A stretch of DNA of 64,000 bases, taken from positions 15,486 through 79,485 of the IMG/VR virus record IMGVR_UViG_2740892219_000010; one strand, written 5' to 3'. The DNA comes from a virus (taxonomy: Duplodnaviria; Heunggongvirae; Uroviricota; Caudoviricetes). This document shows, piece by piece, positions 15,469 to 43,998 of this stretch. Each line of letters opens with the position of its first letter. Within the stretch, counting starts at the first letter, position 1. Under the pieces are notes generated by a model that was not told the DNA's origin, ran no database searches, and was given only the letters and a program-made list of their open reading frames with translations. Position numbers and translations under genes: made by a program.

Positions 15469-15696
15469 CCAATATATGGCAGTAATGAATATTTCGGGGA
15501 TCGTGTTTGCTGCGGTCATGGTTACCATTAGCAGAATAAAACTTGTGAAGGGACGTATCAAACTAAGGATGCTATGTGCGGTAAAGTTTCAATGCAGGGA
15601 ACAGATGCTGAAGTCAAGAAAATGGTCGATTGCCAGACGCAAATGACCCTTTCAAGAATCGCTTTCCTCAGAAACCAATAACTGAAGTTTCCTTCA

Positions 15697-20962: not shown

Positions 20963-21439
20963 TCATGCATGGTGGTCTTGCGCAGTGCGTATCACTGCTC
21001 CTCGCGTCGCTACCAGCGCCGCTATTGCTTCGTCAATTTCCTGAATAGTTAACTCTGGCGCGAAGTGGAGATGTACAGCGTTAATCGCTTCCACCCCTTC
21101 TTTTGCCGCCAGCGTTGCCAGCAAAACGGGATCGCCCGGCGACTCCAGACGTGCCCGCCGTTCTGCGGGTAGCACGGCTTTCATCACACTGGCCAGCACC
21201 TGAGTTTTTCGGCGCGCCGCCGTTGTCTCGCCACGTAACCAGCGAAAGATTTTCTGCCGATTGTTGTTGATGGCTCTCCAGTCCACGTTGCCGTCCGCGT
21301 CCTCAAATTCATGTAGTCTCAACTCATCATTGCGTCCCTGACTGAACCAGGCCCGGCAGATTTCAATCGTGACGAGTTCCTGCCCTGCCCTTGCCGCCCA
21401 GGTCAAAATCTCTTTTTGTAATTCCTCTTGGTTTTCCAT
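20963..21439 (-). CDS. CII-like / YdaT-like regulator
   Basis: 158 aa; NVDWRAINNNRQKIFRWLRGETTAARRKTQ resembles recalled Rac YdaT; follows the Cro-like gene. Confidence 0.5.
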   Translation of the reverse strand: MENQEELQKEILTWAARAGQELVTIEICRAWFSQGRNDELRLHEFEDADGNVDWRAINNNRQKIFRWLRGETTAARRKTQVLASVMKAVLPAERRARLESPGDPVLLATLAAKEGVEAINAVHLHFAPELTIQEIDEAIAALVATRGAVIRTAQDHHA

Positions 21440-21497: not shown

Positions 21498-21728
21498 TTA
21501 AGCTGCTTCCGTTTTAGGCAAGCTGTCATCTGGGTTTGGGTAAAGATCCGGTCTAAGATCATGAGGGGTCACGCGCCATTCAAGAGCTTCAGATGTGCGC
21601 AAAACCTCTTCACCGGGAACCCGTCCTTTGAACCAGAGGCTTACCGTTTGTGGTTTTTTCCCTAATCGCCGCCCTAACTCGGATTGACTCATTACGGAAA
21701 GAATTTTGTCTTGCAGTTGTTTATCCAT
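21498..21728 (-). CDS. Cro-like HTH regulator (YdaS family)
   Basis: Start at ATG 21728 (MDKQLQ) preceded by RBS aaggag; HTH SQSELGRRLGKKPQTVSLW; divergent from the repressor. Confidence 0.6.
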   Translation of the reverse strand: MDKQLQDKILSVMSQSELGRRLGKKPQTVSLWFKGRVPGEEVLRTSEALEWRVTPHDLRPDLYPNPDDSLPKTEAA

Positions 21729-21753
21729 ATGGACTCCTTGTGTCCGCGTCATC

Positions 21754-21774
21754 ATTACAAACAATAACTGTAAT
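21754..21774. promoter_or_regulatory. Candidate operator palindrome in the immunity intergenic region
   Basis: ATTACA-N9-TGTAAT between the divergent Cro-like and repressor genes. Confidence 0.35.
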
Positions 21775-21811: not shown

Positions 21812-22240
21812 TTGTATCCTTACGGTATGAACACAAAAACGAAAAACATGGCTTTTGCTAGCCGACTACAACGGATTCTAAAAGACTTAGGCTGGTCTCA
21901 ATCTGAGTTAGCTCGCCATATTGGGGTTACGGCTCAATCAGTTCAGGCATGGTGTAATGGGGTAACTCCAAGAAAAGATAAATTAGACAAGCTAGCAAAA
22001 GTGACCGGATACCCTGTTCATTTTTTCTTCATGAATGAAGGGGAATATTTGGATGAATCCACACTACACCCGGGTAATTACAATCAAGAACTAACCCCGC
22101 AAGAACAGGCTCTACTGCAACTATTCAGAGGACTGCCTGAGAGCGAAAAAAATAAATTAATCAATGAGCTAAAAGAAAAAAGAGAGCACTTCGATCTACT
22201 GCTAAAAGAACTACTTGAAGCCAAAAACCAGACAAAATAG
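21812..22240 (+). CDS. Prophage repressor, HTH XRE family, no peptidase domain
   Basis: 142 aa; N-terminal HTH (LGWSQSELARHIGVTAQSVQAW), C-terminal coiled-coil-like tail. Confidence 0.65.
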   Translation: MYPYGMNTKTKNMAFASRLQRILKDLGWSQSELARHIGVTAQSVQAWCNGVTPRKDKLDKLAKVTGYPVHFFFMNEGEYLDESTLHPGNYNQELTPQEQALLQLFRGLPESEKNKLINELKEKREHFDLLLKELLEAKNQTK

Positions 22241-23251
22241 TTCAGTTCAAATTTCCAGGCCAGCCGCTGCTGGCATGCAACTTTCCCCTAACACAAAAAC
22301 ACCTTTACACAGTGAATATTTTTTTTGCCCCTCACTACAAATTATTTTTTAAAAACACATTGACCATTACAAATACAAATTGTAAAGTCACTTTCATCAA
22401 CAACGCTTACCCAGCGGCAGTTGTTCAGAAACAAGTTCTGACAGCCGGAAAGACGGCACCAAATTTTGCGCGTCGGCGCCAACACGGTGACAGAGGGAAA
22501 GACTTCACCGGCATATGGCACATGTGTCGAAGCGGTCTGGATGGAAGCGGAGCCTTAACGCGTTGTCTCCATAGCAGGTAGCCGGAATGTGCAAGCCACA
22601 GCCAGGTATGAGCGATTGATTCACCATCAAGGCGATACGGTGTGACCACCAGGGAAGAGTCCTGGCTACAACACGAGAGCGCACTTCATCGACTCAACTT
22701 TGAGCTTTGTCGTTAAATTTTGAAATGGCGGAGTGCGCTCCCGGTTGTGGTGAACAGGTGTTTAACGGGAACTCCCTGCCCGTTACCCGGTTCGATTCCG
22801 GGCGCCCATCATCAATTTGCTGTGTTTAGTCTTTGCCCAGTCCGCACGATGGGCCATTTTTTCACACAGCCAGGTTTTATCGCTGTGCCTGAGTCCCCAA
22901 CAGGAGAGGCCAAACCCGCAGCGTGACACCAGGGAAAGACCGGAGGAAGTACCACGCCTGACCAGCGTTGACCATGAGCCTGACCAGCTCAAAACAGGAA
23001 AGACCAGCCCGGGCCTGACCAGCCCTGTACGGTCGTAATGGAAACATAACGACGCCGGAAACGTAACCGGCACCCTTTAGATAGCAAAAGACCCGCACAA
23101 GGCGGGCCAGTTACCCCGAACGGCGACCAAACCATTCGGATTTATCACAAGTGACCAAACTTGTGATGAGGAAAGACCAACGACACTGACGCTATGGAAG
23201 CTGATCAATATTCGCTGATCGGCTCTGAGTATACATTACCAAGGAGTCGCT

Positions 23252-23572
23252 ATGGAAGCGCGCACCATCCCAGTAACACTCTTTATTCATTATGCAACTT
23301 CAACTTTCAGCCACGAAAAGCTGCTTGTTGCGACTGTTGATATGTCAAAAAATTTTCCAGACAGGTACATCCTTCTGGAAAGCCGCGAAATTGAAATTAC
23401 CGTTAACCAGCCCGAGCCAATCGACATCATCGGTTTACAGGTCGAGCAACTGCGTGAACAAAAACAGAAAACAGTCGCCGACGCCCAACAGCGTATTGCT
23501 GCTATCGATGACAAAATCCAGCAGTTACTTTGCATCGAATACACGCCAGATACCGATGAGCTCCCCTACTAA
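23252..23572 (+). CDS. Hypothetical protein, first gene of early-left operon
   Basis: 106 aa with RBS aaggag. Confidence 0.45.
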   Translation: MEARTIPVTLFIHYATSTFSHEKLLVATVDMSKNFPDRYILLESREIEITVNQPEPIDIIGLQVEQLREQKQKTVADAQQRIAAIDDKIQQLLCIEYTPDTDELPY

Positions 23573-23602
23573 AAACCACTGACCTGTAATGAGGAAAGAC
23601 CA

Positions 23603-25822
23603 ATGACCATTTTTAACGGCTTGTTAGAAGCGAAAAAAGGCGCGCTCAAAAACGGCGCGATCCCGGCGCTGGCCATCGCCATCGCCGCCCCTAACAAAAA
23701 AGTTGCCGAGAACATCATCATCGGCAAATTGTGGGAAGCCTACCCTGACCACGGCGACAACTATTTCAAACCTAAAATCTGGGAAGATGCCCCGGGCCAA
23801 CCGCGCCCAGGCGTCGGTGAGTTTGATGAGACGTTTGCCACAGAACACAGTTTTGATGGCGAAAAATGGGTAGTTAACACTCCTGTTGATTCAGATTGCA
23901 GTTCAGCAGATATCTCACAGGTTAGCGACCTGATGAAACTGCCGGCTCGTGAACGATTCGCCGCCGTTCTGCTGTTCAGCCACGACGCCAACGAAGTCGA
24001 CAGTGAATTGCTTGCGCAGACGCGTGAATACCTGGAGATGCTCGATAACAGTGATACTGACAGTGAGGATGAGGTTGACGCGTTTAACCGCATCGTTCTT
24101 GATGCCATGGTGGCGTGTAAGCCCATCGAGTACATGCATATTGCTGGATTGAATAATCTGGTACATGCAATTTTGGCAAGTTGCGATACCCAGGAACAAA
24201 ACCCGACCAGTTGGACTATCTCCAAATTTATAAAAAAATGGGTAGAGAATCCCGGTAAACGCGATGAAATGCTGCCGGAGATAAAACCAGAAACAGCATC
24301 CGCACGTCCTTACAAACAGACTCACGCCACTCTGGATCGTGAAATTGCCTGCGCCCTGTTACCTGTTGCCCCGGAAAAAATCACCCCCAGCATCCTGAAA
24401 GCGGCAGACGAAATAATCAGTCAGGACAGGGAAGATTTTAAACGCTGGTCAATGGCCTTGCGCACAACGGATCAGATCCTTGCCTATGACCGCGCATCAG
24501 TATTCGGTGTTATTCAGAGCGCCCCCGCAAAAGACACGTACCACTTCCCGCAATCCCTGCGCAATCACATCGATAACTGGCTGCAAGCTAACGGGCAGCG
24601 TGATGCAAATGCTGTTGAAGAGAAGCCAAAGGAAGCAGCACCAAAGGATGATGTAAAAGTCATCAACCACGGCGGCGGACGATTCTCAATTGATGGGATG
24701 ATGTCAGAAACACCCTCAAATCAGGGCGAAAAAAGCGAAACAGCAAATGCTGGAGAACGTAGTTTGCAGCAGTTGCGTGAGCAGTTTGTCACGCCTCGCC
24801 ATGTGTATGACGTACCTGAAAATAACGCCGTATCACAGAGGGAACCTGCAGCTATTACTACCCCGGCAGAAGAGACTCCTCCACAAGAACAACTTAGCGA
24901 GCAGGTAAAGGATCTGGTGCAGAACGTTGACGCGCTGGTTGAGCGGATCCATACCGAAGAGCACAAGCGGCAGAATGCAATCTCAGCTATCGAAACGGAG
25001 TTAAAGGACTCCGGCGACACGGATAACCTGGCATTGTGGAAGAACGTATTCAAAACCGATGAGCGCTTCACCAGTGCTTTCTCTCAGAACGGCGGCGGCA
25101 CATCCATCAACGGCACTTATATAGCGATGAAAGCGACTCGCGAATTTGGGCCGTTTGGTATTGGCTGGGGTGTAGAGGTGCTGGAGGAGCGCTTTGATAA
25201 AGGCGCACCGATAGTTCGTAAAAAACAGGTTGGTGAAAAAATAGAATGGGATCTGATTCAAGACGGTGTTGGCGGGTACCTATGTGAAATGCACCACACC
25301 ATGAAAGTGAGAGTCTGGTACATATTGAATGGGGTACGCGGTGAGTCCGAGGCTTACGGATGCACACCTTATATCTACGACACTAAATACGGACCAACAA
25401 GCGACGGCGAAGCGCCGAAGAAATCCTGGACGGATGCTGTTAAGAAAGCGCTATCCCCTCTCGGATTCAGCGCCGATATTTTCATGGGCCTGTACGACAA
25501 TCCGGAATACCGCCAGAGGAATAAAGCTGAGTTTGATATCAAGAATGCCAGCGAGAATGCGGAAGATGCTACCCGTCTGCGTAAGGAACTGGATGAGGAG
25601 CTTATCAACGTTGCCAATACGCTGGCCGCCGCGGTAACCACCAACGAAGTAAACAAGGTATTTGGCCTCATCGCCCGCGAAGTGGATGTACACAGGAAAG
25701 CAGCGGAAGCCAAAGGCGATAAAGAATATTCATCGTATCTGGGATCGCGCCTGCGCCGTATCACCGACATTAAAACTGAACGCCTCGCCGCCCTTACCGC
25801 TGCACAGGAGCAAACCGCATGA
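23603..25822 (+). CDS. Large protein with C-terminal Rad52/Sak/Erf-like single-strand annealing domain
   Basis: 739 aa; C-terminal motifs GTYIAMKATREFGPFGIGWGVEV and KKSWTDAVKKALSPLGFSADIFMGLYD resemble Rad52-family signatures; N-terminal ~480 aa unassigned. Confidence 0.5.
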   Translation: MTIFNGLLEAKKGALKNGAIPALAIAIAAPNKKVAENIIIGKLWEAYPDHGDNYFKPKIWEDAPGQPRPGVGEFDETFATEHSFDGEKWVVNTPVDSDCSSADISQVSDLMKLPARERFAAVLLFSHDANEVDSELLAQTREYLEMLDNSDTDSEDEVDAFNRIVLDAMVACKPIEYMHIAGLNNLVHAILASCDTQEQNPTSWTISKFIKKWVENPGKRDEMLPEIKPETASARPYKQTHATLDREIACALLPVAPEKITPSILKAADEIISQDREDFKRWSMALRTTDQILAYDRASVFGVIQSAPAKDTYHFPQSLRNHIDNWLQANGQRDANAVEEKPKEAAPKDDVKVINHGGGRFSIDGMMSETPSNQGEKSETANAGERSLQQLREQFVTPRHVYDVPENNAVSQREPAAITTPAEETPPQEQLSEQVKDLVQNVDALVERIHTEEHKRQNAISAIETELKDSGDTDNLALWKNVFKTDERFTSAFSQNGGGTSINGTYIAMKATREFGPFGIGWGVEVLEERFDKGAPIVRKKQVGEKIEWDLIQDGVGGYLCEMHHTMKVRVWYILNGVRGESEAYGCTPYIYDTKYGPTSDGEAPKKSWTDAVKKALSPLGFSADIFMGLYDNPEYRQRNKAEFDIKNASENAEDATRLRKELDEELINVANTLAAAVTTNEVNKVFGLIAREVDVHRKAAEAKGDKEYSSYLGSRLRRITDIKTERLAALTAAQEQTA

Positions 25823-26388
25823 GCACTGCTATCGCTATTGCAAAAGAATATGCCAGTCTGATTGACCTGTTAGAAACCTCCGACGAACTGACGCCAGAGA
25901 TGATCGCCGACACGCTTGAAGGTATGGAAGGAGAACTGGGAGACAAACTGGACGCCATGATGGTCATCTGCCGCAATTTACAGGGCAATGCCAATACCTG
26001 CGCTGAAGAAATGTCTCGCCTGGCTACCCGTAAGACGTCCTTTGAAGGCAAGGAAAAAGCAATTCGAAAGCATATGCTCGCCTGCCTGCAAGCTGCTGGC
26101 CTGGATAAACTGAAAACCGCAAAAAACACATTTACTGATGCACAGGGGGCTATCCGGGTAATTATTGATAACAAAGATAAGATCCCGGACGAGTATGAGG
26201 GTGTGTCACTTGTTGATGTAGAAACGGTTATTACACCAAACAAGCGAGCCATTAAAGAAGTGATTGAATCTGCGGAGGCGGTTGCCGCCGAAATACTGGC
26301 GCGTGGAGAAACACCACCAGCCGAGTTATTAAACCCGGTACCAGGCGCACATCTGGAACGCGGCGAACGGTCACTGAGGATACGCTAA
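25819..26388 (+). CDS. Hypothetical acidic protein
   Basis: 189 aa, ATGA-coupled to the 739-aa gene. Confidence 0.45.
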   Translation: MSTAIAIAKEYASLIDLLETSDELTPEMIADTLEGMEGELGDKLDAMMVICRNLQGNANTCAEEMSRLATRKTSFEGKEKAIRKHMLACLQAAGLDKLKTAKNTFTDAQGAIRVIIDNKDKIPDEYEGVSLVDVETVITPNKRAIKEVIESAEAVAAEILARGETPPAELLNPVPGAHLERGERSLRIR

Positions 26389-26570
26389 TGCTTAAACTCA
26401 CATTAAAGCGTGGTGACGCGGTTCACCTGGTACTTGCCGATGGTACCAATGGCATTATTGAAGCACGGAGCCGCTGCGAACTTGGGCTACACCTGCCAGA
26501 AAACATTAAGGTCACTCGGGAGAAATCGGCATTCCCCCCACCAGAACTGATTACGCCTAATCAGAAATAA
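26388..26570 (+). CDS. Hypothetical small protein
   Basis: 60 aa, start overlaps previous stop. Confidence 0.3.
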   Translation: MLKLTLKRGDAVHLVLADGTNGIIEARSRCELGLHLPENIKVTREKSAFPPPELITPNQK

Positions 26571-26844: not shown

Positions 26845-27043
26845 ATCAAAGCAATGTGAGGCTCTTCGCCGGGCTGGAATTTTCTTCATGGAAAGGGCTG
26901 ACGGACACCCAAAAACAACCTGGGGCCATTTCATGAACCCAATAAAATTTCGCAATTTACAGGAGGTGACGACGCGAAAAGATGATGAACCTGATTTTGG
27001 AGCAATATTTAATGGCCGGAAAGAGAAAGAACCCAGCAGATAA
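26780..27043 (+). CDS. Putative excisionase-like protein
   Basis: 87 aa directly upstream of and overlapping the integrase. Confidence 0.4.
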   Translation: MKSDHDIITREEMVELTGSPLKSKQCEALRRAGIFFMERADGHPKTTWGHFMNPIKFRNLQEVTTRKDDEPDFGAIFNGRKEKEPSR

Positions 27044-28028
27044 CTGGATGCCGCCTCGTGTTTACCAGGGCAAAGCGGCCTACGAATTCAGGAATAAAGA
27101 TAACAAAGCGATACGCCTGTGCGCATTGGATGCACCACGATCAGCCGTATGGCTGGCATATGAAAAAGCGGTCGGTGACGAAAAAGAAAGAAATACTTTT
27201 CAGGCGCTCGCGGAACAATTCATGACCTCCCCTGATTTTATGGATTTGGCAGTCGAAACCAGGAAAGACTACACAAAATATTCCGGAAAAGTTCTGCCTG
27301 TCTTCGGGAAGATCGACCCGGATAAAATCAAACCTGAACATATTCGGCGCTATATGGATCAACGCGGTTTATCAAGCCGAACTCAGGCAAACAGGGAAAA
27401 AAGCTTTATGTCCCGGGTATTCCGTTGGGGTTATGAACGAGGTTATGTTCAGAGGAATCCTTGTCAGGGAGTTAAACAGTTTAAAGAGACAGCTCGCGAA
27501 CGTTATATTACGGATGAAGAATATCAGGCCGTTTATGAAGTGTCTCCTGACGTCGTTCGCGTGGCAATGGAGATTGCCTACTTATGCGTGGCCAGACAGA
27601 GTGATGTACTTTCATTGCAGAAAGACCAACTGTTCGATTCCGGGATCTACATTCGTCAGGGAAAAACCGGCGTTAAGCAAATCAAAGCCTGGTCGCCTCG
27701 TCTGCAGAAAGCGATAGCTCTGGCTCGTTCTCTGCCATTAAAAACGGGAATCAGTAGTCTGTTTGTGATTCATCAAACTACCGGTGGCAAGTACACCCGT
27801 GATGGTTTTAACTCTCGTTGGCGTGATGTCAAAGCTGCGGCACAGGAAAAATATCCTCATCTGCAAATAGACTTCACATTTCATGATCTGAAAGCAAAAG
27901 GTATCTCTGATCTGGAAGGCAGCCTGGAAGAGAAGCAAGCAATTTCCGGGCATAAGAACCCACGACAGACAGCAGCATATGACCGAAAAGTTAAAGTAGT
28001 GCCCGTAGTTGGTGGCCAGAGAAAATGA
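26982..28028 (+). CDS. int: Tyrosine integrase of the lambdoid prophage
   Basis: 348 aa tyrosine-recombinase-like C-terminal region; 3-prime end 60 bp from the att repeat. True start may be ATG at 27012. Confidence 0.8.
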   Translation: MMNLILEQYLMAGKRKNPADNWMPPRVYQGKAAYEFRNKDNKAIRLCALDAPRSAVWLAYEKAVGDEKERNTFQALAEQFMTSPDFMDLAVETRKDYTKYSGKVLPVFGKIDPDKIKPEHIRRYMDQRGLSSRTQANREKSFMSRVFRWGYERGYVQRNPCQGVKQFKETARERYITDEEYQAVYEVSPDVVRVAMEIAYLCVARQSDVLSLQKDQLFDSGIYIRQGKTGVKQIKAWSPRLQKAIALARSLPLKTGISSLFVIHQTTGGKYTRDGFNSRWRDVKAAAQEKYPHLQIDFTFHDLKAKGISDLEGSLEEKQAISGHKNPRQTAAYDRKVKVVPVVGGQRK

Positions 28029-28319: not shown

Positions 28320-29321
28320 TTACCCTCTATTGTCAAAAGGGTTCAATTCAACTGCAGCCTCTAAATGACCTGGAGCAAAATGCGCATAACGCATAGTCAT
28401 TTTTATATCGCTATGCCCCAGTATTTTTTGCAACACAAGAATATTTCCTCCCCGCATCATAAAATGACTGGCAAACGTGTGACGTAGCACATGAGTTAAT
28501 TGCCCATCAGGAAGCTCGATCTTCGCTCTCTTAATTGCAGCGTCAAAAGCCTCATAACATGGTGAAAATAACGCTCCTCGTTTTTTAGGAAGCATAGCCT
28601 GCAATTGAGGTGAAATCGGTACAGTGCGGTTCTTCTTTCCTTTAGTTTTAACAAATGTGATTCGACCGGGCAGCACTTGAGATTGCTTTAATCCTTCAGC
28701 TTCACTCCACCGAGCACCAGTCGCAAGCCCAATACGGACAACAACCCCCAAATCTTTATTCCGTGACTCATCACACGCAATCAGAAGGCGTTCAATCTCA
28801 TCTACATACAGAAACGCCAATTCCTTTTCTTCCTCACGAAACTTGCGAATGCCAGTCAGGGGGTTTTCACCAGACCACTCCCCAAGGCGCTTCAGTTCGG
28901 CAAAAACAGCATGTAGATATGACTGCTCGCGATTAACGGTTGCTTCACTAAGTTTTTTCTTCCCCTTGGGATTCCATTCTCCTGATAACCTCCTTTCCCG
29001 ATAAGTAGCAAACATATTTTTGTCAAACTGAGAAGCAAATGGATCTCCCAGCCTAGAACAAATAGACTCAAGTTTGACTTTGCGCTCTGCACCAGAGGAC
29101 AAGGTTTTACCGTACATCTCAAACCAACGAGCAACCAACTCAGAAAGACGAGGACCAGAACCATCTTGAAACTCGTCTCCAACTCTACTATTCATTAAAC
29201 GGCGCTCATAAGAGAGCGCCTCACTTTTTGTCGCAAACTGTTTACGAATACGTTTTCCCGATGCCCCGTAAGGATAACATTCGCAAAGCCATTTACCTGA
29301 TGGAATCTTACGAACCGACAT
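28320..29321 (-). CDS. int: P2-family tyrosine integrase
   Basis: 333 aa; C-terminal HxxR..Y-type catalytic region (VLRHTFASHF..MRYAHF); adjacent to att copy 1. Confidence 0.85.
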   Translation of the reverse strand: MSVRKIPSGKWLCECYPYGASGKRIRKQFATKSEALSYERRLMNSRVGDEFQDGSGPRLSELVARWFEMYGKTLSSGAERKVKLESICSRLGDPFASQFDKNMFATYRERRLSGEWNPKGKKKLSEATVNREQSYLHAVFAELKRLGEWSGENPLTGIRKFREEEKELAFLYVDEIERLLIACDESRNKDLGVVVRIGLATGARWSEAEGLKQSQVLPGRITFVKTKGKKNRTVPISPQLQAMLPKKRGALFSPCYEAFDAAIKRAKIELPDGQLTHVLRHTFASHFMMRGGNILVLQKILGHSDIKMTMRYAHFAPGHLEAAVELNPFDNRG

Positions 29322-33345: not shown

Positions 33346-36168
33346 GTGGCAACGGAGTACATCAGAAACTGGCAACAACCACGCCATGCAGTCGGTCGCG
33401 AGGGAACGGGGGAGCCTGTCCGCCCCTCCCTTCTTTCTTCCTGGCTGGATGCCTACCGGGCAGAGAACGAGCGCCGCCAGGAAATGGCTGATGCGGCGTT
33501 CTCCGCCACGCCGCTGGGCAATTTGATTAATAAAAACCTGGACGCACAGGAAAAACAGGACAAAGCCATCACACTGGCAAGAGAAGCCAGAAAACAGGCG
33601 TGTGGCGCGGTGGATGAAGCAATTGCCGCACTGCGCCTGCTGCCGTCCTATCTGCGAGATCCGCTTATCCGCCATCTCTCTTTCCTGCGCAAAAAACAGG
33701 AATCCGATCGTCAGAAAGGCAAAAAGAGCTGGCAGGCTGAACGCTACGCGCGCGGAACCCTGCGCAAAATATTCGAACGTCTGGAGCGCACCGACAGACG
33801 CTGGCTGACACCGGGTTATCGCTCCCTTGCCGGGCGTGAACGCCTGGATGATTTACTTTACCTGCCGCAGCTCAACAAACACCAGATACAGACGCTGGCC
33901 GTCATGACAGCGGCGATGTTCAGCAGCACCTTCGAAAAACTCTGCGATGACTTTGGCGCGACCGATGGCGAGCTGACCATGGATATAACGCTGAAGGCGT
34001 ATCAGATGCTGGCCCGCATGGCGTTACATCTGCACACAGTGCCGCCGCATTATGACGCACTGACAACAGACAAAGACCGGAAGAACGAACCGGACACGGA
34101 GCTGCTGCCGGGTGCAATCCTCCGCCTGACCTGTGCGGACTGGTGGAAACGCAAATTGTGGCTTTTACGTTGCGAATGGAGAGAGGAACAACTCCGCGCT
34201 GCCTGTCTGGTTTCCAGAAAAACATCCCCCTATCTGAGTCAGGACGCATTAAGTGAATTTCGCGCACAGCGCGAGAAAACACGCGATTTCCTGAAAAGTT
34301 TCATGCTGGAAAATGAAGACGGGTTCACGATTGATCTTGAGACGGTGTATTACGCGGGAGTAAGTAACCCGGTCCACCGTAAGGCAGAAATGATGGCCAC
34401 CATGAAGGGGCTGGAACTTCTGGCCGAAGCCCGTGGCGACAAAGCGGTATTTCTGACCGTTACCTGCCCGTCAAAATATCACGCAACAACGGAGAACGGT
34501 CATCCGAATCCCAAATGGAACGGCGCCACCATGCGCGATTCCAGCGATTACCTGGTTAACACTTTTTTTAAGGCAGTCCGCAAAAAACTGAACCGCGACG
34601 ACCTGCGCTGGTATGGTATCCGCACGGTGGAGCCACACCATGACGGCACCGTGCACTGGCACATGATGGTCTTTGCACATCCTGAAGAAATCGACAGCAT
34701 CGTGGACATCACCCGTGATATTGCCATTCGCGAAGACCGCCACGAGCTGGGCAATGACATAACTCCGCGCTTTAAGGCAGAGTACGTCGACGGTTCGAAA
34801 GGTACGCCGACCAGCTACATCGCCACCTACATCGGAAAGAACCTGGACAGCCGCGCCGTGGATGGCATTGACCCGAAAACAGGCAAGCCACGCGTTGATC
34901 ACGAAACCGGAAAATCAATGACCGAGAGCGTGGAACGCGCCATCGGCTGGGCGCGCCTTCACCGCGTCCGCCAGTTCCAGTTCTTTGGTATCCCCTCCCG
35001 TCAGGTATGGCGTGAACTCCGCCGCCTTGCCAGTCAGATGGCCCGCAACCCGGAAGGTCCACAACGTCTGGAAAATGACGCAATGGATGCGGTACTCGCT
35101 GCCGCTGATGCCGGGTGTTTTGCCACCTACATTGAGAAACAGGGGGGCGTACTTGTTCCACGCAAGGATTACCTGATTCGCACCGCCTACGACCTCGCAG
35201 AAGAGCTGAACGATTACGGCGAGCAAAGCGTACAGATTTACGGGATCTGGTCGCCACAAATCGGGGAATCTTCCCGCGTGTGCACGCACCCGGATAACTG
35301 GAAGCTGGTAAGACGTAAACCGGAAGCGGAAGACAGCGCCCGCGAAAATGGTTTTGACCTTCAGGGCGGCCCTGCCGCCCCTTGGACTCGTGGCAATAAC
35401 TGTCCCCGTGTACAGGAAACGGACAACAACGGGACAGAACAGCCGGAAGAACGGCCAGCACCGTGGCCGCAGCTTCCTGACGGCGTTGAAGTGAATGAAT
35501 GGATGCGCTCACTGAAACGGCACGAACGCCGGGCGCTGATGCGTTCGCTGCGTGACAAACAGGCAAAAAACAGCAGTGATGAAATGCAGAACTGGACACA
35601 GAGCCGCAAACAGCCGCGGCCTTTGCCTGATAACCACGAGTTACTCGCTAAAGAATGGCGGGAGTCTGCCGAATCTCTCGGCCTGCATATCGGTAAACAA
35701 CAGATGCTGCACCTGTTACGGGGCGGCAGTCTGTACGTTGACGGCAGCATCATTGCGCCGCAGGGATATGAAATTGTACGTAAACCGGATACCCGACCGG
35801 ACAGCCGAATCACGCAGCTCTGGCAGCGCCTGAGCCGTAATCACAGCGTAAGCAGCACGGAGATCCGCCATAACCCGGTTTCCAGCTATCTGAAACAGCT
35901 CGGTGCATCAGACCCAGAAGCCGCCGCACGCCTGGCATCCACACTTCAGCAGGACCAGAACACCATGAAAACCCCCGTTACCGTGCTTTCTGACATGCTG
36001 CGCGCCATCCGTGACGCAGAGCACGCACAGAGAATCAGTGAAACCACTGAACGCGCCCACCGCAAAGCAGACCTGCTGCGGGGTGGCCTGACCCGTGGGA
36101 ACAAAAAACAGACAGAAACGGGATTCACAAATCCCGTAAATGAGCAAAAAACGCGCCGCGAAATATGA
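33346..36168 (+). CDS. A: Replication initiation protein, P2 gpA family (HUH rolling-circle initiator)
   Basis: 940 aa; HDGTVHWHMMVF motif typical of gpA-like HUH endonucleases; GTG start with RBS. Confidence 0.8.
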   Translation: MATEYIRNWQQPRHAVGREGTGEPVRPSLLSSWLDAYRAENERRQEMADAAFSATPLGNLINKNLDAQEKQDKAITLAREARKQACGAVDEAIAALRLLPSYLRDPLIRHLSFLRKKQESDRQKGKKSWQAERYARGTLRKIFERLERTDRRWLTPGYRSLAGRERLDDLLYLPQLNKHQIQTLAVMTAAMFSSTFEKLCDDFGATDGELTMDITLKAYQMLARMALHLHTVPPHYDALTTDKDRKNEPDTELLPGAILRLTCADWWKRKLWLLRCEWREEQLRAACLVSRKTSPYLSQDALSEFRAQREKTRDFLKSFMLENEDGFTIDLETVYYAGVSNPVHRKAEMMATMKGLELLAEARGDKAVFLTVTCPSKYHATTENGHPNPKWNGATMRDSSDYLVNTFFKAVRKKLNRDDLRWYGIRTVEPHHDGTVHWHMMVFAHPEEIDSIVDITRDIAIREDRHELGNDITPRFKAEYVDGSKGTPTSYIATYIGKNLDSRAVDGIDPKTGKPRVDHETGKSMTESVERAIGWARLHRVRQFQFFGIPSRQVWRELRRLASQMARNPEGPQRLENDAMDAVLAAADAGCFATYIEKQGGVLVPRKDYLIRTAYDLAEELNDYGEQSVQIYGIWSPQIGESSRVCTHPDNWKLVRRKPEAEDSARENGFDLQGGPAAPWTRGNNCPRVQETDNNGTEQPEERPAPWPQLPDGVEVNEWMRSLKRHERRALMRSLRDKQAKNSSDEMQNWTQSRKQPRPLPDNHELLAKEWRESAESLGLHIGKQQMLHLLRGGSLYVDGSIIAPQGYEIVRKPDTRPDSRITQLWQRLSRNHSVSSTEIRHNPVSSYLKQLGASDPEAAARLASTLQQDQNTMKTPVTVLSDMLRAIRDAEHAQRISETTERAHRKADLLRGGLTRGNKKQTETGFTNPVNEQKTRREI

Positions 36169-39133: not shown

Positions 39134-40180
39134 TCAGGATGTGGGCTGGGTGTCTAACAGTGCGTAAGGGTTAAAGCGGATCACCTCTTCGCCAAGCCAG
39201 TCATTGATGTGCTTCATGGCCTCCATGACGGGCATCAGCTCGTTAATTGCGTAAACCCGCGCGGCCTTCTCCACATCACCAAACGCACTTTTTTCACCCG
39301 GCATCGCCCCCATCAGTTGCGGCGGAACGCGGTGCGCAGCCAGCACATCATCACGGGATGCCGCCTTAACATTCATGAACTCATCCTTTGCGGTGATCTG
39401 CTGGAACGGCAAAATTTGCACCCCCTCTTTGCCCCCGTTGGGCGCATGAATGAGCACGTTTTTAAACGCACCACCACCACGCGCACCCTGTAGCGTTTCT
39501 TTCAGGGAGTCCATGCTTTCGCGGTTTACCTGCGCTGCACCGATGTAGATGATGCACCCGGCGTGGGATCCATTGTCGTAATACAGTTTTCTGAACATGT
39601 CCGCCGAATGAGACAGGCTGGCCGAGAGTAATGCGCCGAGATATTCCGGCATGCCGTAGATTTCCTGGTTAATGTCAGGATTCATCAGGTGGCACACTTT
39701 GCCAGGGCGAAACTGAAACGCGTCCTTACCATCCTGCACATACCACCATGATTCAAGATCGCTTCCGCGTCGCATGTATTTCGCCAGGGCGTGCCGTAAT
39801 TTAAGCGGTTCGCCGAGCATATTGCTTCGAAGCTCAAGAAATGCGTTACCGAACACAAACCAGTCCAGCGCCAGCGCCGAGAAATCCTGCCGGGAAAGCA
39901 GCGGGTGCGGAATATAGCAACCGAGCAATACATTGCGCTTAAAGTAAAGCGCAGACTGATGCCAGGACGTTTGCCGGGCGGATCTTGCCAGACCGTACCA
40001 GTCCACCGGGGTTTCATACCACCGCCCGTTATCAGCACAGTACATATTGTCCAGCAGGTCATGCCCGGTCAGGCGATAAGGACCATCAAATGTGAATGCA
40101 CTGAGCGATGATTCTTTCCTGAGCGCATCAGCGAGATCAATGCGTGAACTCATGCGCACTTTTTTATTTTTTCTGCTCAT
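39134..40180 (-). CDS. Q: Portal protein, P2 gpQ-like
   Basis: 348 aa, P2-like size and position, divergent from O. Confidence 0.8.
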   Translation of the reverse strand: MSRKNKKVRMSSRIDLADALRKESSLSAFTFDGPYRLTGHDLLDNMYCADNGRWYETPVDWYGLARSARQTSWHQSALYFKRNVLLGCYIPHPLLSRQDFSALALDWFVFGNAFLELRSNMLGEPLKLRHALAKYMRRGSDLESWWYVQDGKDAFQFRPGKVCHLMNPDINQEIYGMPEYLGALLSASLSHSADMFRKLYYDNGSHAGCIIYIGAAQVNRESMDSLKETLQGARGGGAFKNVLIHAPNGGKEGVQILPFQQITAKDEFMNVKAASRDDVLAAHRVPPQLMGAMPGEKSAFGDVEKAARVYAINELMPVMEAMKHINDWLGEEVIRFNPYALLDTQPTS

Positions 40181-41931
40181 CAGAACTCCATAACCGTGAA
40201 ACGCTCGTTTTCTCCTTCGCCGCCAATCGGTTCGTTAATGACAGCAAGCATGGTTGCCCACGCAAGGTCGCCGTGGCTGATCCCCCTCGCGCGGTCCGTT
40301 TCGTAAGTGATAAAGCCGCCCGGTGTTTTCACCTTACGCACGGCGTTAAAGGCCGCGACCAGCTCGCGTTCGGCGCGATCGTATTCCCACCGGCCGGCAC
40401 GCATTATTTGCAGCATTTTCAGTACCAGCGACCGTTTTGATGACAGCGTGAAGGTGTACGGAATAGCTGCAGGGAAAAACCGTTTCACTATCTGATAAAC
40501 AGCCTCCCCATTCCCGCCCGTCACATCAATGCCGATGTGTTCCACGTTGTAGCGACACGTGAACTCTTCAATGACTCTGGCCTGTTCTTCAAACTCCAGC
40601 CCCTGAACGCGTCGCGTCTCCACCGTTCGAAAACGGCCACCAGGAACAGCCGGAGGAACCACCACGGACACAGCGCCGCTGTCGCCGTTGCCACTGCTGC
40701 CGTTTGCGTCATACCCAATCCATACCGGACGATTCCCCATCGGGCGGGGAGCAAAAGGTTTCCAGTCTTTCCAGTCGTCGTATCCGTCAACACCGCAGCC
40801 AATCAGGATATTCAGGTTAAATGCCGATTCCCCTTCGCGGACAAACTCACACATATAGAGATTGAGGAACTCGTCTTCGGTGTTTTCATCACGAATTTCG
40901 TCGATATCGGTGTGTTTCCAGCCGTGATTGACCACATCTTCCAGCGTGACAATTTGCCGCCACGTCCGGTCAGGGCAGATAAGCCCGTTATGCAGCGTTT
41001 TCCAGTCCACAGAAAAACGCTGGCGTTTATGCGAGGCCTTTTTCTCGTTCCAGCGGTCGCCGTTCCAGTAGGCGTATGCCTCGTGCGTTTCGGTGGATGG
41101 CGTGGAGAAGTAGGTGCGCCGCAGTCCGCTGAGGGTTGCCATAGCGCCAGCCACCTTACGCAGTTCAGCAAAGCGACTGACCCAGAAAAATTCATCAAAA
41201 TAAAAATTGCCCGTATAGGACTGTGCCGACGCAGCAGAAGTGCCGAGAAAATGCAGCTCTGCGCCGTTGGAGAGGATGATTTTATCGCCCCCTTTCAGCT
41301 CCACATCAACTTCAGCCGCGGCCTTCTGAATAATGCTTTTAAACTGGAACGCCTGACGACGCGACGCAGACAAAAAAATCTGGTTACGCTGGTAAGGTTG
41401 CGCCACATCGTCACGCAGCGCCATCAGCAGAGCTTCCTGTGCAAAATACCAGGTCGCCCCAATCTGTCGGGATTTCAGGATCATCCTGTTACGTATCCCG
41501 GCTTCCCTGCAAAGGGTCAGGGAGTCAAACCAGCCCCGCTGATGCCACTCCAGCCTGCTGATGATTTTTTCCCGCAGTGCGGCAATCTGTTCCGGCGTGA
41601 AATGATTTTTGAGTTTTTTCGCCCGGCCTTTCTTTCCTGCGGCCATCACATCCGGCTGGCCATCATGCAGCTTTTTAAGCTGCCGGGTCAGCAGGTCTAT
41701 TTCCTTAAAGTCACCGCCTGTTTTATTCTGTTTTTCAGTAAGCTGGATGAGGCGCGCATCGATGGACTGCGTGACACGCTGCACGGGTGGCGTTTCATCC
41801 CACTGGTCACGTTTTTTCCACGCATAAATCGTGTTCGGGTTTATTCCCATCAGACGTGATATTTCTGCGGGCGGATAACCCTGCCAGTAAAGTTGCCGCG
41901 CACGCTGGCGCACAAAAGCGTCCTGAATCAT
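40180..41931 (-). CDS. P: Terminase large (ATPase) subunit, P2 gpP-like
   Basis: 583 aa, upstream of and coupled to the portal gene. Confidence 0.8.
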   Translation of the reverse strand: MIQDAFVRQRARQLYWQGYPPAEISRLMGINPNTIYAWKKRDQWDETPPVQRVTQSIDARLIQLTEKQNKTGGDFKEIDLLTRQLKKLHDGQPDVMAAGKKGRAKKLKNHFTPEQIAALREKIISRLEWHQRGWFDSLTLCREAGIRNRMILKSRQIGATWYFAQEALLMALRDDVAQPYQRNQIFLSASRRQAFQFKSIIQKAAAEVDVELKGGDKIILSNGAELHFLGTSAASAQSYTGNFYFDEFFWVSRFAELRKVAGAMATLSGLRRTYFSTPSTETHEAYAYWNGDRWNEKKASHKRQRFSVDWKTLHNGLICPDRTWRQIVTLEDVVNHGWKHTDIDEIRDENTEDEFLNLYMCEFVREGESAFNLNILIGCGVDGYDDWKDWKPFAPRPMGNRPVWIGYDANGSSGNGDSGAVSVVVPPAVPGGRFRTVETRRVQGLEFEEQARVIEEFTCRYNVEHIGIDVTGGNGEAVYQIVKRFFPAAIPYTFTLSSKRSLVLKMLQIMRAGRWEYDRAERELVAAFNAVRKVKTPGGFITYETDRARGISHGDLAWATMLAVINEPIGGEGENERFTVMEF

Positions 41932-42945: not shown

Positions 42946-43998
42946 ATGAATCTGGTGATGTCAGATATTACCCGCAACAAGCTGGGCTGCTATATGGCGC
43001 AGCAGGCGTCGCTTAACAATATCCCGGTTTCCGCACTGGTATCGCGATTTACCGTGGAACCCTCGGTACAGCAGCGTTTTGAAAACGCCTCAAAGGAAAG
43101 CACCGAATTTACAAAAAGAATTAACGTGATCGGCGTGACCGACCAGAAAGGCGAAAAAATCCTCCTGGATACCACCGGGCCGATTGCGCGCACGAATACC
43201 AGTTATGACGGCACAAAACGCCGTAACCCGAATAACGTGGTTGATCTGAAAAACCGCAAATACCAGTGCGAACAGGTGAACTACGACACGTTTATTTCAT
43301 ATCCGCAGCTTGATGCCTGGGCGGCACACCCTGATTTTCAGTCCCGCATCAGCGCACAGATTGCCCGACAGGTGGCACTTGACCGCATCATGATCGGTTT
43401 CAACGGCACGTCTCACGCGGATGAGTCCAACTTCAGCACCAACAAGTTGCTTCAGGACGTTAACGTGGGGTGGCTGGAGCACATCAGAACCGACGCCAGC
43501 GAACGCGTTATGAATGACGTGACGCTGACCTCCCGTAACATGGACAACACCGTGGCGCACGCGGGTAAGTATGCGAACGCTGATGCACTGGTACAGGACG
43601 CGCGCTCATCCCTGCTGGATGAATGGCACAAGGAAGCTGACGACCTCGTGGTGATTATGGGGCGCAACCTGTTTAACTCGCTGCGTCTGCCCGTGCTGAA
43701 CAGCATCAGCGGCCAGAATCCCAATGCGGAATTACTCGCCGGGCAGCTCATTCTGTCATCGCGCACCATTGGCGGGCTGGGCGTGTTCCTTGCGCCGTTC
43801 TTCCCGGATTCAACGATGCTGATCACCTCGTTCAACAACCTGTCGATTTACTGGCAGAAAGGTTCAATGCGTCGTCTGATGAAAGACGAACCGGAATACA
43901 ACCGCATCGCCACCTACCAGTCCATCAATGACGCTTATGTCGTTGAAGACTATGGCAAGTGCGCGATGGTCACTGGCCTGAAGTTCGCCGACAGCTAA
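42946..43998 (+). CDS. N: Major capsid protein, gpN-like
   Basis: 350 aa; FTVEPSV, IGFNGT, LQDVNVGWL, ITSFNNLSIY, YVVEDY match recalled P2 N. Confidence 0.85.
   Translation: MNLVMSDITRNKLGCYMAQQASLNNIPVSALVSRFTVEPSVQQRFENASKESTEFTKRINVIGVTDQKGEKILLDTTGPIARTNTSYDGTKRRNPNNVVDLKNRKYQCEQVNYDTFISYPQLDAWAAHPDFQSRISAQIARQVALDRIMIGFNGTSHADESNFSTNKLLQDVNVGWLEHIRTDASERVMNDVTLTSRNMDNTVAHAGKYANADALVQDARSSLLDEWHKEADDLVVIMGRNLFNSLRLPVLNSISGQNPNAELLAGQLILSSRTIGGLGVFLAPFFPDSTMLITSFNNLSIYWQKGSMRRLMKDEPEYNRIATYQSINDAYVVEDYGKCAMVTGLKFADS

Follow-up and report, generated by a model that had tools for sequence, protein, structure and literature searches.

The 64,000-nucleotide (nt) stretch of viral DNA analyzed in this study (hereafter the window; positions 15,486 to 79,485 of record IMGVR_UViG_2740892219_000010) carries an open reading frame (ORF) that runs unbroken from ATG to TGA at exactly 23603..25822 on the plus strand and encodes a protein of 739 amino acids (aa). 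This gene probably specifies the strand-annealing recombinase of a lambdoid prophage recombination (Rec) module and is built as a fusion, in which a module related to the N-terminal region of RecE precedes a linker, a Rad52-like annealase and a helical tail. It is directly followed by a Sipho_Gp157 gene, named for a Mu Gam-like end-protection role. An earlier sequence-only reading of this DNA had reported the ORF and judged the protein longer than usual for a single-strand annealing protein (SSAP), and both statements were confirmed: the ORF is uninterrupted, and its product is approximately three times the usual length owing to an N-terminal extension of ~470 aa. The parts of the gene are as follows.

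23603..25822, plus strand: whole gene, encoding the 739-aa fusion (YdfE_N/RecE-N-like module, linker, Rad52-like annealase and helical tail); ORF with a full-length phrog_2489 match
23603..23878, plus strand: N-terminal module (N-module) subdomain D1, aa 1-92, small alpha/beta unit
23921..24277, plus strand: N-module subdomain D2, aa 107-225, acidic helical bundle (helices 115-223 predicted by AlphaFold2 (AF2); net charge -11, isoelectric point (pI) 4.5)
24311..24616, plus strand: N-module subdomain D3, aa 237-338, helical, the piece in common with canonical RecE (NCBIfam RecE; phrog_607 positions 276-372)
24617..25021, plus strand: disordered acidic linker, aa 339-473 (predicted local distance difference test (pLDDT) <50 at both model edges; 51% P/S/T/Q/N/G/E)
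24674..24703, plus strand: short linear motif GGRFSIDGMM, aa 358-367, within the linker (pattern search in relatives)
25022..25510, plus strand: Rad52/Rad22-family single-strand annealing core, aa 474-636 (hhalign against a Rad52 profile; Pfam PF04098 in relatives)
25409-25465, plus strand: putative motif of the single-stranded DNA (ssDNA) groove, E603-G621 (EAPKKSWTDAVKKALSPLG), inside the annealing core
25511..25819, plus strand: C-terminal three-helix tail, aa 637-739, a probable partner-binding or oligomerization domain

A Rad52-Like Annealing Domain at the C-Terminus

The last 269 aa have plentiful stand-alone relatives of 240-280 aa in Pseudomonas, Yersinia, Serratia and phages, one of which bears the NCBI name Rad52/Rad22 family DNA repair protein. 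Among 30 members of this C-terminal family, Rad52_Rad22 (PF04098) is the only Pfam family that is consistently matched: 26 of them hit it, always over the same profile region, and the relatives P0071 (23.8 bits) and P0012 (23.0 bits) exceed its curated cut-off of 20.3 bits, P0012 being ~50% identical to the annealing domain of the window. Neither the window protein nor any of the 30 members matched the Pfam profiles of RecT (PF03837), Red-beta or Erf.

Alignment of the family profile with verified human RAD52 alone by hhalign gave an E-value of 0.0025 over RAD52 residues 46-161; two of 400 shuffled RAD52 sequences scored as well, and the reversed sequence scored at background. When the target was a profile of human RAD52 together with five genuine phage Rad52 proteins (recovered by tblastn with the RAD52 core), the match extended over 171 columns with a probability of 89.4% and an E-value of 2e-6. 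The Rad52-invariant residues A142, K144, D149, K152, R153, and G159 align with the family-invariant A604, K606, D611, K614, K615, and G621. In RAD52 structures, K152 and R153 line the inner ssDNA groove. Similar to Rad52/Rad22 SSAPs (human RAD52's N-terminal domain; Sak of Lactococcus phage ul36; PF04098), with which the annealing core is homologous, the window protein keeps the FG..GW and (E)A.K...TD..K(K/R)AL...G motifs, including the equivalents of RAD52 K144, K152, and R153, and genes of both kinds lie in phage recombination modules. The order of secondary-structure elements predicted by AF2 (helix, three long strands, helix) is compatible with a Rad52 core. On the basis of these profile alignments, residues ~474-636 are assigned to a Rad52/Rad22-family (Sak-type) annealing domain in which the basic groove residues of RAD52 are kept; the Rad52-like motifs that the sequence-only reading had placed in the last ~250 aa are thus borne out by the PF04098 matches and the hhalign alignments, and the comparison of this region with Rad52/Sak profiles returned a match.

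Several results weigh against this interpretation. The C-terminal fragment of the window protein itself scores 13.7 bits (E 0.059) against the PF04098 cut-off of 20.3, and the full-length protein gave no PF04098 match at E<0.1 in the Pfam scan. The alignment shows no conserved equivalents of RAD52 R55 and R156, and a PDB sequence search with the family profile did not retrieve RAD52. The AF2 models derive from shallow alignments (23-30 sequences) and have predicted template modeling scores (pTM) of 0.38-0.41. For the recombination module as a whole, the MuGam-like role of the Gp157 neighbor is taken from database names and the classification of one paper. A PDB sequence search with the window protein itself returned nothing relevant.

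Unlike Rad52/Rad22 SSAPs, the window protein possesses the N-terminal extension of RecE-N-like module and linker, which is not described in two SSAP surveys (PMC2896510, PMC11783212), and it has an enterobacterial-specific hairpin inserted in the sheet. Similar to lambda Red-beta and RecT, its working part begins with an annealing core and ends in a small helical domain, which in Red-beta binds the exonuclease and SSB (PMC6393309). It differs from Red-beta and RecT in belonging to another superfamily branch, in having the extra N-module and in lacking an encoded exonuclease partner.

The N-Terminal Module and Linker

The N-terminal region had no match in a local Pfam scan, and the sequence-only reading had found no assignable motif there. 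This did not hold up against other databases. Residues 233-328 align in PHROGs to the middle of RecE-like families, and residues 233-336 match positions 262-370 of 877 of the NCBIfam RecE equivalog model (NF007259) with an E-value of 1.3e-12, at 46.7 bits against a cut-off of 1269 for whole-protein membership. The RecE nuclease domain comprises residues 564-866 (PMC11611040), and the segment in common with the window protein falls outside it. YdfE_N (PF27430), a family of newer Pfam releases, is annotated on P0121 and P0123, which are 98% and 87% identical to the window protein, and PF27430 together with PF27432 on divergent N-modules; membership in both families is read here from precomputed tags on relatives. 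Judged from these matches, residues 1-338 are a YdfE_N/RecE-N-like, non-nuclease module homologous to the N-terminal region of the RecE family. The extension had been suggested to be a novel accessory domain: accessory remains an apt description, whereas novel does not, the module being already catalogued and common to the RecE family.

The AF2 model of residues 1-350 (pLDDT 77, pTM 0.38) comprises three units corresponding to D1, D2, and D3, of which D3 is the stretch most widely shared among the 143 N-module representatives described below; D1 and D2 are common to only part of the RecE-like proteins. Like RecE (exonuclease VIII) of the Rac prophage, the window protein has a long N-terminal region ahead of its working domain (PMC11611040), the segment 262-370 being in common, but it carries a Rad52-like annealase in place of the PD-(D/E)XK nuclease domain. 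The biochemical function of the RecE N-terminus is not established, yet this region enhances linear-linear recombination (PMC11611040).

Across an alignment of 19 distant N-modules, one alanine and one proline are the only invariant positions and no polar or charged residue is invariant, which argues against catalysis. The N-module is acidic (net charge -18, pI 4.9), which argues against direct DNA binding, and the linker has a net charge of -11. Within the linker, the pattern G[GA]x[FY][ST][IVL]x[GAS][LMIF][LMIF] recurs in 14 of 83 long relatives with all C-terminal classes represented, compared with approximately 0.01 matches expected by chance according to our own estimate. GGRFSIDGMM is considered a candidate short interaction motif that belongs to the scaffold.

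One N-Terminal Module with Several C-Termini

An exhaustive phmmer scan of 1.84 billion representatives with residues 1-470 identified 143 relatives, 83 of them at least 450 aa long. Domain-specific iterated hidden Markov models (HMMs) sorted the C-termini of these 83 into a Rad52-like annealase (22), a ~175-aa domain with no family assigned (20), a PD-(D/E)XK RecE-type nuclease (16), a DnaQ/Rv2179c-like 3'-5' exonuclease (11), and truncated or other forms (14). The annealase-fused architecture is accordingly represented by 22 clusters (50% identity), whose N-termini are 25-37% identical to that of the window protein. Four alternative C-termini on the same N-module indicate that this module is a shared front end for alternative DNA-end effectors. 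A profile-based third homologue search gave 18 proteins, and the AF2 alignment of the N-module is therefore shallow.

Thirty relatives labeled 'Exonuc_VIII' in Pfam had been taken as RecE nucleases, which gave a count of 46 'RecE-type' C-termini; this count was wrong, PF06630 being an N-terminal family and the single-linkage cluster heterogeneous. The name of PF06630 is misleading, in that it matches an N-terminal non-nuclease region (residues 51-194 of P0349).

The second largest class (P0270, P0283, P0288, P0336, P0353, and 15 others) joins the N-module to the ~175-aa domain, with no Pfam match and no nuclease signature. This class is possibly the 'RecE-2' of lambdoid phages, described in a 2025 survey of lambdoid Rec modules (PMC12315714) as distant relatives of Rac/Gifsy-1 RecE that have no nuclease domain and whose roles are not known. 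Compared by description only, 'RecE-2' fits the window protein as well as P0270-type relatives, and the text of the survey does not mention an annealing domain in it. Escherichia phage Tritos encodes an 823-aa 'exonuclease VIII' (locus L005, 3178-6346) of the same length as P0289, a representative of the N-module plus DnaQ-like class; the Tritos gene is located after dicF, dicB, and ydfD, lies directly 5' of xis/int and lacks an adjacent annealase gene. Judging by the Pfam name YdfE_N, YdfE of E. coli K-12 (Qin prophage) may be a fragment of an N-module protein.

Recombination Module and Prophage Context

As the sequence-only reading had proposed, the gene occupies the recombination-gene position of a lambdoid left operon: the prophage is lambdoid/Rac-like, and within its early-left operon the gene is flanked by a cI-like repressor on one side and xis/int on the other. 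Rac recE shares this setting in an early-left operon 5' of xis/int, whereas the window gene has a Gp157 gene next to it in place of a recT partner. The neighborhood is arranged as follows (BUCT708 is a Stenotrophomonas phage).

20963-21439, minus strand: YdaT/cII-like gene
21498-21764, minus strand: YdaS/cro-like gene
21812-22240, plus strand: cI-like repressor gene
22240-23250: ORF-free stretch of ~1 kb
23252..23572, plus strand: 106-aa gene, co-conserved directly 5' of the 739-aa gene (phrog_2479; same place in BUCT708 and E. coli loci L011-L013)
25819..26388, plus strand: Sipho_Gp157/'Mu Gam-like end protection' gene, ATGA overlap (Pfam PF05565, E 4e-29; phrog_253)
26388..26570, plus strand: 60-aa gene, 1-nt overlap with the Gp157 gene, co-conserved (phrog_2482; present in BUCT708 and L011-L013)

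A DUF4224 excisionase and an integrase lie 3' of the 60-aa gene. Genes for an O-like initiator, a DnaB-like helicase, an anti-repressor, and a large terminase are still present in the prophage. The ATGA overlap couples translation of the 739-aa gene with that of the Gp157 gene, and stand-alone annealase homologues have comparable neighbors: that of Pseudomonas phage MPK9 overlaps a downstream Gp157 gene, that of phage D14S lies beside a 3'-5' exonuclease, SSB, and RdgC, and that of Pelagibacter phage HTVC035P bears an annealing-protein annotation and overlaps a nuclease gene upstream of it. The window Gp157 is homologous to genes of HK140, HK639, and mEpX1 that adjoin SSAP genes. According to the lambdoid survey (PMC12315714), HK140 and HK639 carry MuGam-type anti-RecBCD proteins, and many lambdoid Rec modules have no nuclease gene. 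Pfam and PHROGs scans of the window Rec module showed no exonuclease gene, SSB, or recT. With an annealase and a Gam-like protein and neither nuclease nor SSB, the module fits this known functional type. The same source describes nuclease-less modules consisting of Erf and Abc in P22 and of SAP-4 and MuGam in HK140; the window module resembles them in combining an annealase with an anti-RecBCD/end-protection protein and no phage nuclease, and differs in that its annealase is of another sequence type and is fused to a RecE-N-like module.

Membership in an anti-phage defense system was considered and rejected, as PADLOC matched none of its defense-system models to the window protein or its three neighbors (four proteins). 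A likeness of the 60-aa gene to CsrA was likewise discarded: the BUCT708 homologue has a weak, sub-threshold Pfam CsrA match (E 0.0065), and BLASTP of the window protein against E. coli CsrA found nothing.

The ORF-free stretch contains a sub-threshold Rfam match to RprA at 22754-22864 on the plus strand (37.4 bits against a threshold of 70, E 0.014). Its 3' half (UGCUGUGUuUAGUCUUUGCCC, hairpin plus U-run) has almost the same sequence as the RprA consensus, with a terminator-like end at 22840-22864, and a 21-nt core is exactly kept at the equivalent position in the three E. coli prophage loci L011-L013. By this similarity, the region may encode a prophage-borne RprA-like small RNA or a seed mimic.

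Two integrase genes are located approximately 290 bp apart, at 26982-28028 on the plus strand and 28320-29321 on the minus strand. The second opens a P2-like prophage that extends to ~54000, which indicates that the window contains two tandem prophages; in strain C41, the lambdoid element adjoins tRNA-Ser and mtfA instead. The P2-like prophage includes the following genes.

33346-36168: origin-nicking protein
39134-40180: portal
40180-41931: large terminase
42946-43998: major head protein

Proposed Mechanism

As the strand-annealing recombinase of this Rec module, the protein would act through its C-terminal domain, which may oligomerize, bind 3' ssDNA in a groove lined by K606, K614, and K615, and anneal complementary ssDNA that becomes accessible where phage DNA has ends or gaps. 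Annealing of this kind would serve phage replication, circularization, and mosaic exchange. Gp157 would shield DNA ends from RecBCD, and resection would be left to host nucleases, as in the nuclease-less Rec modules of P22 and HK140. The N-module is envisaged as a non-catalytic protein-interaction scaffold that could deliver or tether its attached DNA-end domain, whichever this is, to a shared partner or substrate setting, or could hold substrates together; the same scaffold role would explain why, in linear-linear recombination, full-length RecE outperforms the isolated nuclease domain.

We tentatively extend this proposal to a portable 'recombination hub', which we regard as possible rather than probable, in which the N-module and the motif GGxFS(I/V)(D/E)G(L/M) dock one host or phage partner or bridge DNA ends and have been shuffled onto at least four DNA-end effectors. 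These effectors would be two nucleases (one 5'-3', the other 3'-5'), a Rad52-type annealase, and a domain of no assigned family.

Alternatively, the N-module might have nothing to do with scaffolding and might act as an acidic DNA mimic or anti-RecBCD inhibitor directed at host nucleases or defense, or mask the annealase from sensors of SSAPs. We consider this unlikely, although it would account for the strongly acidic character of both N-module and linker, and SSAPs are known to trigger bacterial immune sensors such as Avs21 (PMC13581612). Linkage of the module to several unrelated DNA-end enzymes is what would be expected of a generally useful add-on, and full-length RecE improves the survival or joining of linear DNA (PMC11611040). 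Against such a function, the Rec module already holds a gene for a Gam-like partner.

Conservation and Selection

Among 5426 complete E. coli genomes, 462 carry the single-ORF architecture with a nucleotide identity of 95-99%, and in 439 complete E. coli genomes it forms a full-length single ORF. Hundreds of Salmonella proteins of 710-757 aa have the same architecture, and the isolated phage BUCT708 encodes a 710-aa homologue with 52.6% identity in a cassette identical to that of the window, gene for gene. The ratio of nonsynonymous to synonymous substitution rates (dN/dS) is 0.14 overall; computed against a divergent E. coli allele, it is 0.14 in the N-module (137 substitutions), 0.24 in the linker, 0.05 in the Rad52 core, and 0.065 in the tail. 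The linker has the highest values (0.24-0.42) and the Rad52 core the lowest (0.04-0.05). The 739-aa ORF is real, uninterrupted, conserved, and under purifying selection.

Synonymous sites in the two parts of the gene have diverged unequally from the P0123 allele (locus L012): the value is 0.52 for the N-module (23603-24616) and 0.06-0.21 for the remainder (24617-25819), which indicates separate histories and an exchange of sequence by recombination near the domain boundary. Such a pattern points to a recombination breakpoint near this boundary, consistent with the domain shuffling seen on a larger scale.

It could be argued that the protein is an inactive relic, borne by a prophage, that has kept its folds and lost its function, as an insertion sequence interrupts some E. 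coli copies and under laboratory conditions many prophage Rec genes are not needed. This is very improbable in view of the strong purifying selection, particularly in the Rad52 core, the invariance of the DNA-groove residues across the family, the occurrence of the identical cassette in a plaque-forming phage (BUCT708), and the terminase, replication, immunity, and integration genes that the surrounding prophage retains. The interruptions are due to the IS3-family element ISEc52, which splits the gene in several E. coli strains (hits H1-H6, e.g., NZ_CP107114.1 314737-318206).

A ribosome-binding site (GAGGAAAG) lies 7 nt 5' of the start of the ORF. The sequence ATGAGGAAAGACCAA is present twice, 424 nt apart; the 739-aa gene takes its ribosome-binding site and start from the second copy (23589-23605), and the first (23165-23181) lies in the ORF-free region 5' of the 106-aa gene. 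In the type I-E clustered regularly interspaced short palindromic repeats (CRISPR) array of E. coli NCTC9112, located beside cas1e/cas2e and iap, a spacer region is 100% identical to the 34 nt at 24091-24124 (nt 489-522 of the gene), which suggests that this host acquired immunity against phages carrying the N-module.

Exonuclease Annotations and the Integrity of the Fusion

In public records, the 739-aa protein is named 'hypothetical' or, misleadingly, 'exonuclease', and the sequence-only reading had raised the possibility that the extension is a fused exonuclease partner. A RecE-type exonuclease (exonuclease VIII) that resects ends for a separate annealase would agree with the label 'exonuclease' on phrog_2489 and phrog_7838, with the names 'exonuclease family protein' or 'phage-associated endonuclease' on some RefSeq copies, and with the match of residues 233-336 to the RecE equivalog model. 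We give it very little credence. The RecE match lies outside the nuclease domain and reaches a small fraction of the required score, the phrog_7838 region is the Rad52-like domain, and the module has no other gene for an annealase. Beyond misleading family names, the window protein has no match to a nuclease family in Pfam, NCBIfam, or PHROGs; no hit to DUF3799/PDDEXK, DnaQ-type, or other nuclease families was obtained, and HMMs made from relatives' PD-(D/E)XK and DnaQ-like domains matched no annealase-class relative. A fold search with the predicted N-module likewise gave no nuclease match. With no family, fold, or HMM match and no invariant polar residue, a fused exonuclease in the N-terminus was rejected. 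The label on phrog_7838 misleads, as this family spans the Rad52-like domain, and its name is the probable reason why stand-alone annealases of Vibrio phages are labeled 'exonuclease'.

An overlooked frameshift separating two ordinary genes, which would have undone the sequence-only reading, was not found either. On this view, a sequencing frameshift or a meaningless, accidental recent fusion would have joined a ~260-aa annealase to a separate N-terminal protein; the common stand-alone annealases of 240-280 aa and the long disordered linker between both halves speak for it. It has practically no chance of being correct, as it is already refuted by the conservation of the single ORF in E. coli, Salmonella, and the isolated phage BUCT708, to which are added the recurrence of the fusion in 22 divergent clusters and purifying selection on both halves and the linker.

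Novelty and Implications

No description of a RecE-N-like/Rad52 fusion was found in the literature searched, the nearest statement being that on 'RecE-2' in PMC12315714. It is the architecture that is new; Rad52-family annealases of bacteria and phages (PMC2896510; PMC11783212) and RecE are already well known, and the annealase itself is ordinary.

The assignment corrects the annotation of a protein that approximately 8% of the complete E. coli genomes and many Salmonella encode, whose working domain, as judged from sequence comparison, is a Rad52-type annealase. Surveys of prophages that score Rec functions would miss or misclassify this annealase. An annealase with its own targeting module and a Gam-like protein as its only partner could be a compact recombineering system. 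The relatives also provide a comparative handle on a question still open in recombineering, namely the role of RecE's N-terminal ~560 aa: the occurrence of the same N-module on an annealase and two unrelated nucleases, under purifying selection, indicates a role that does not depend on the chemistry of the nuclease and is accessible to testing in several natural settings. If the hub proposal is true, the stimulation of linear-linear recombination by the RecE N-terminus would be a nuclease-independent property of the hub, and the window protein would be a self-sufficient single-polypeptide recombinase that works without a dedicated exonuclease and a candidate recombineering tool.

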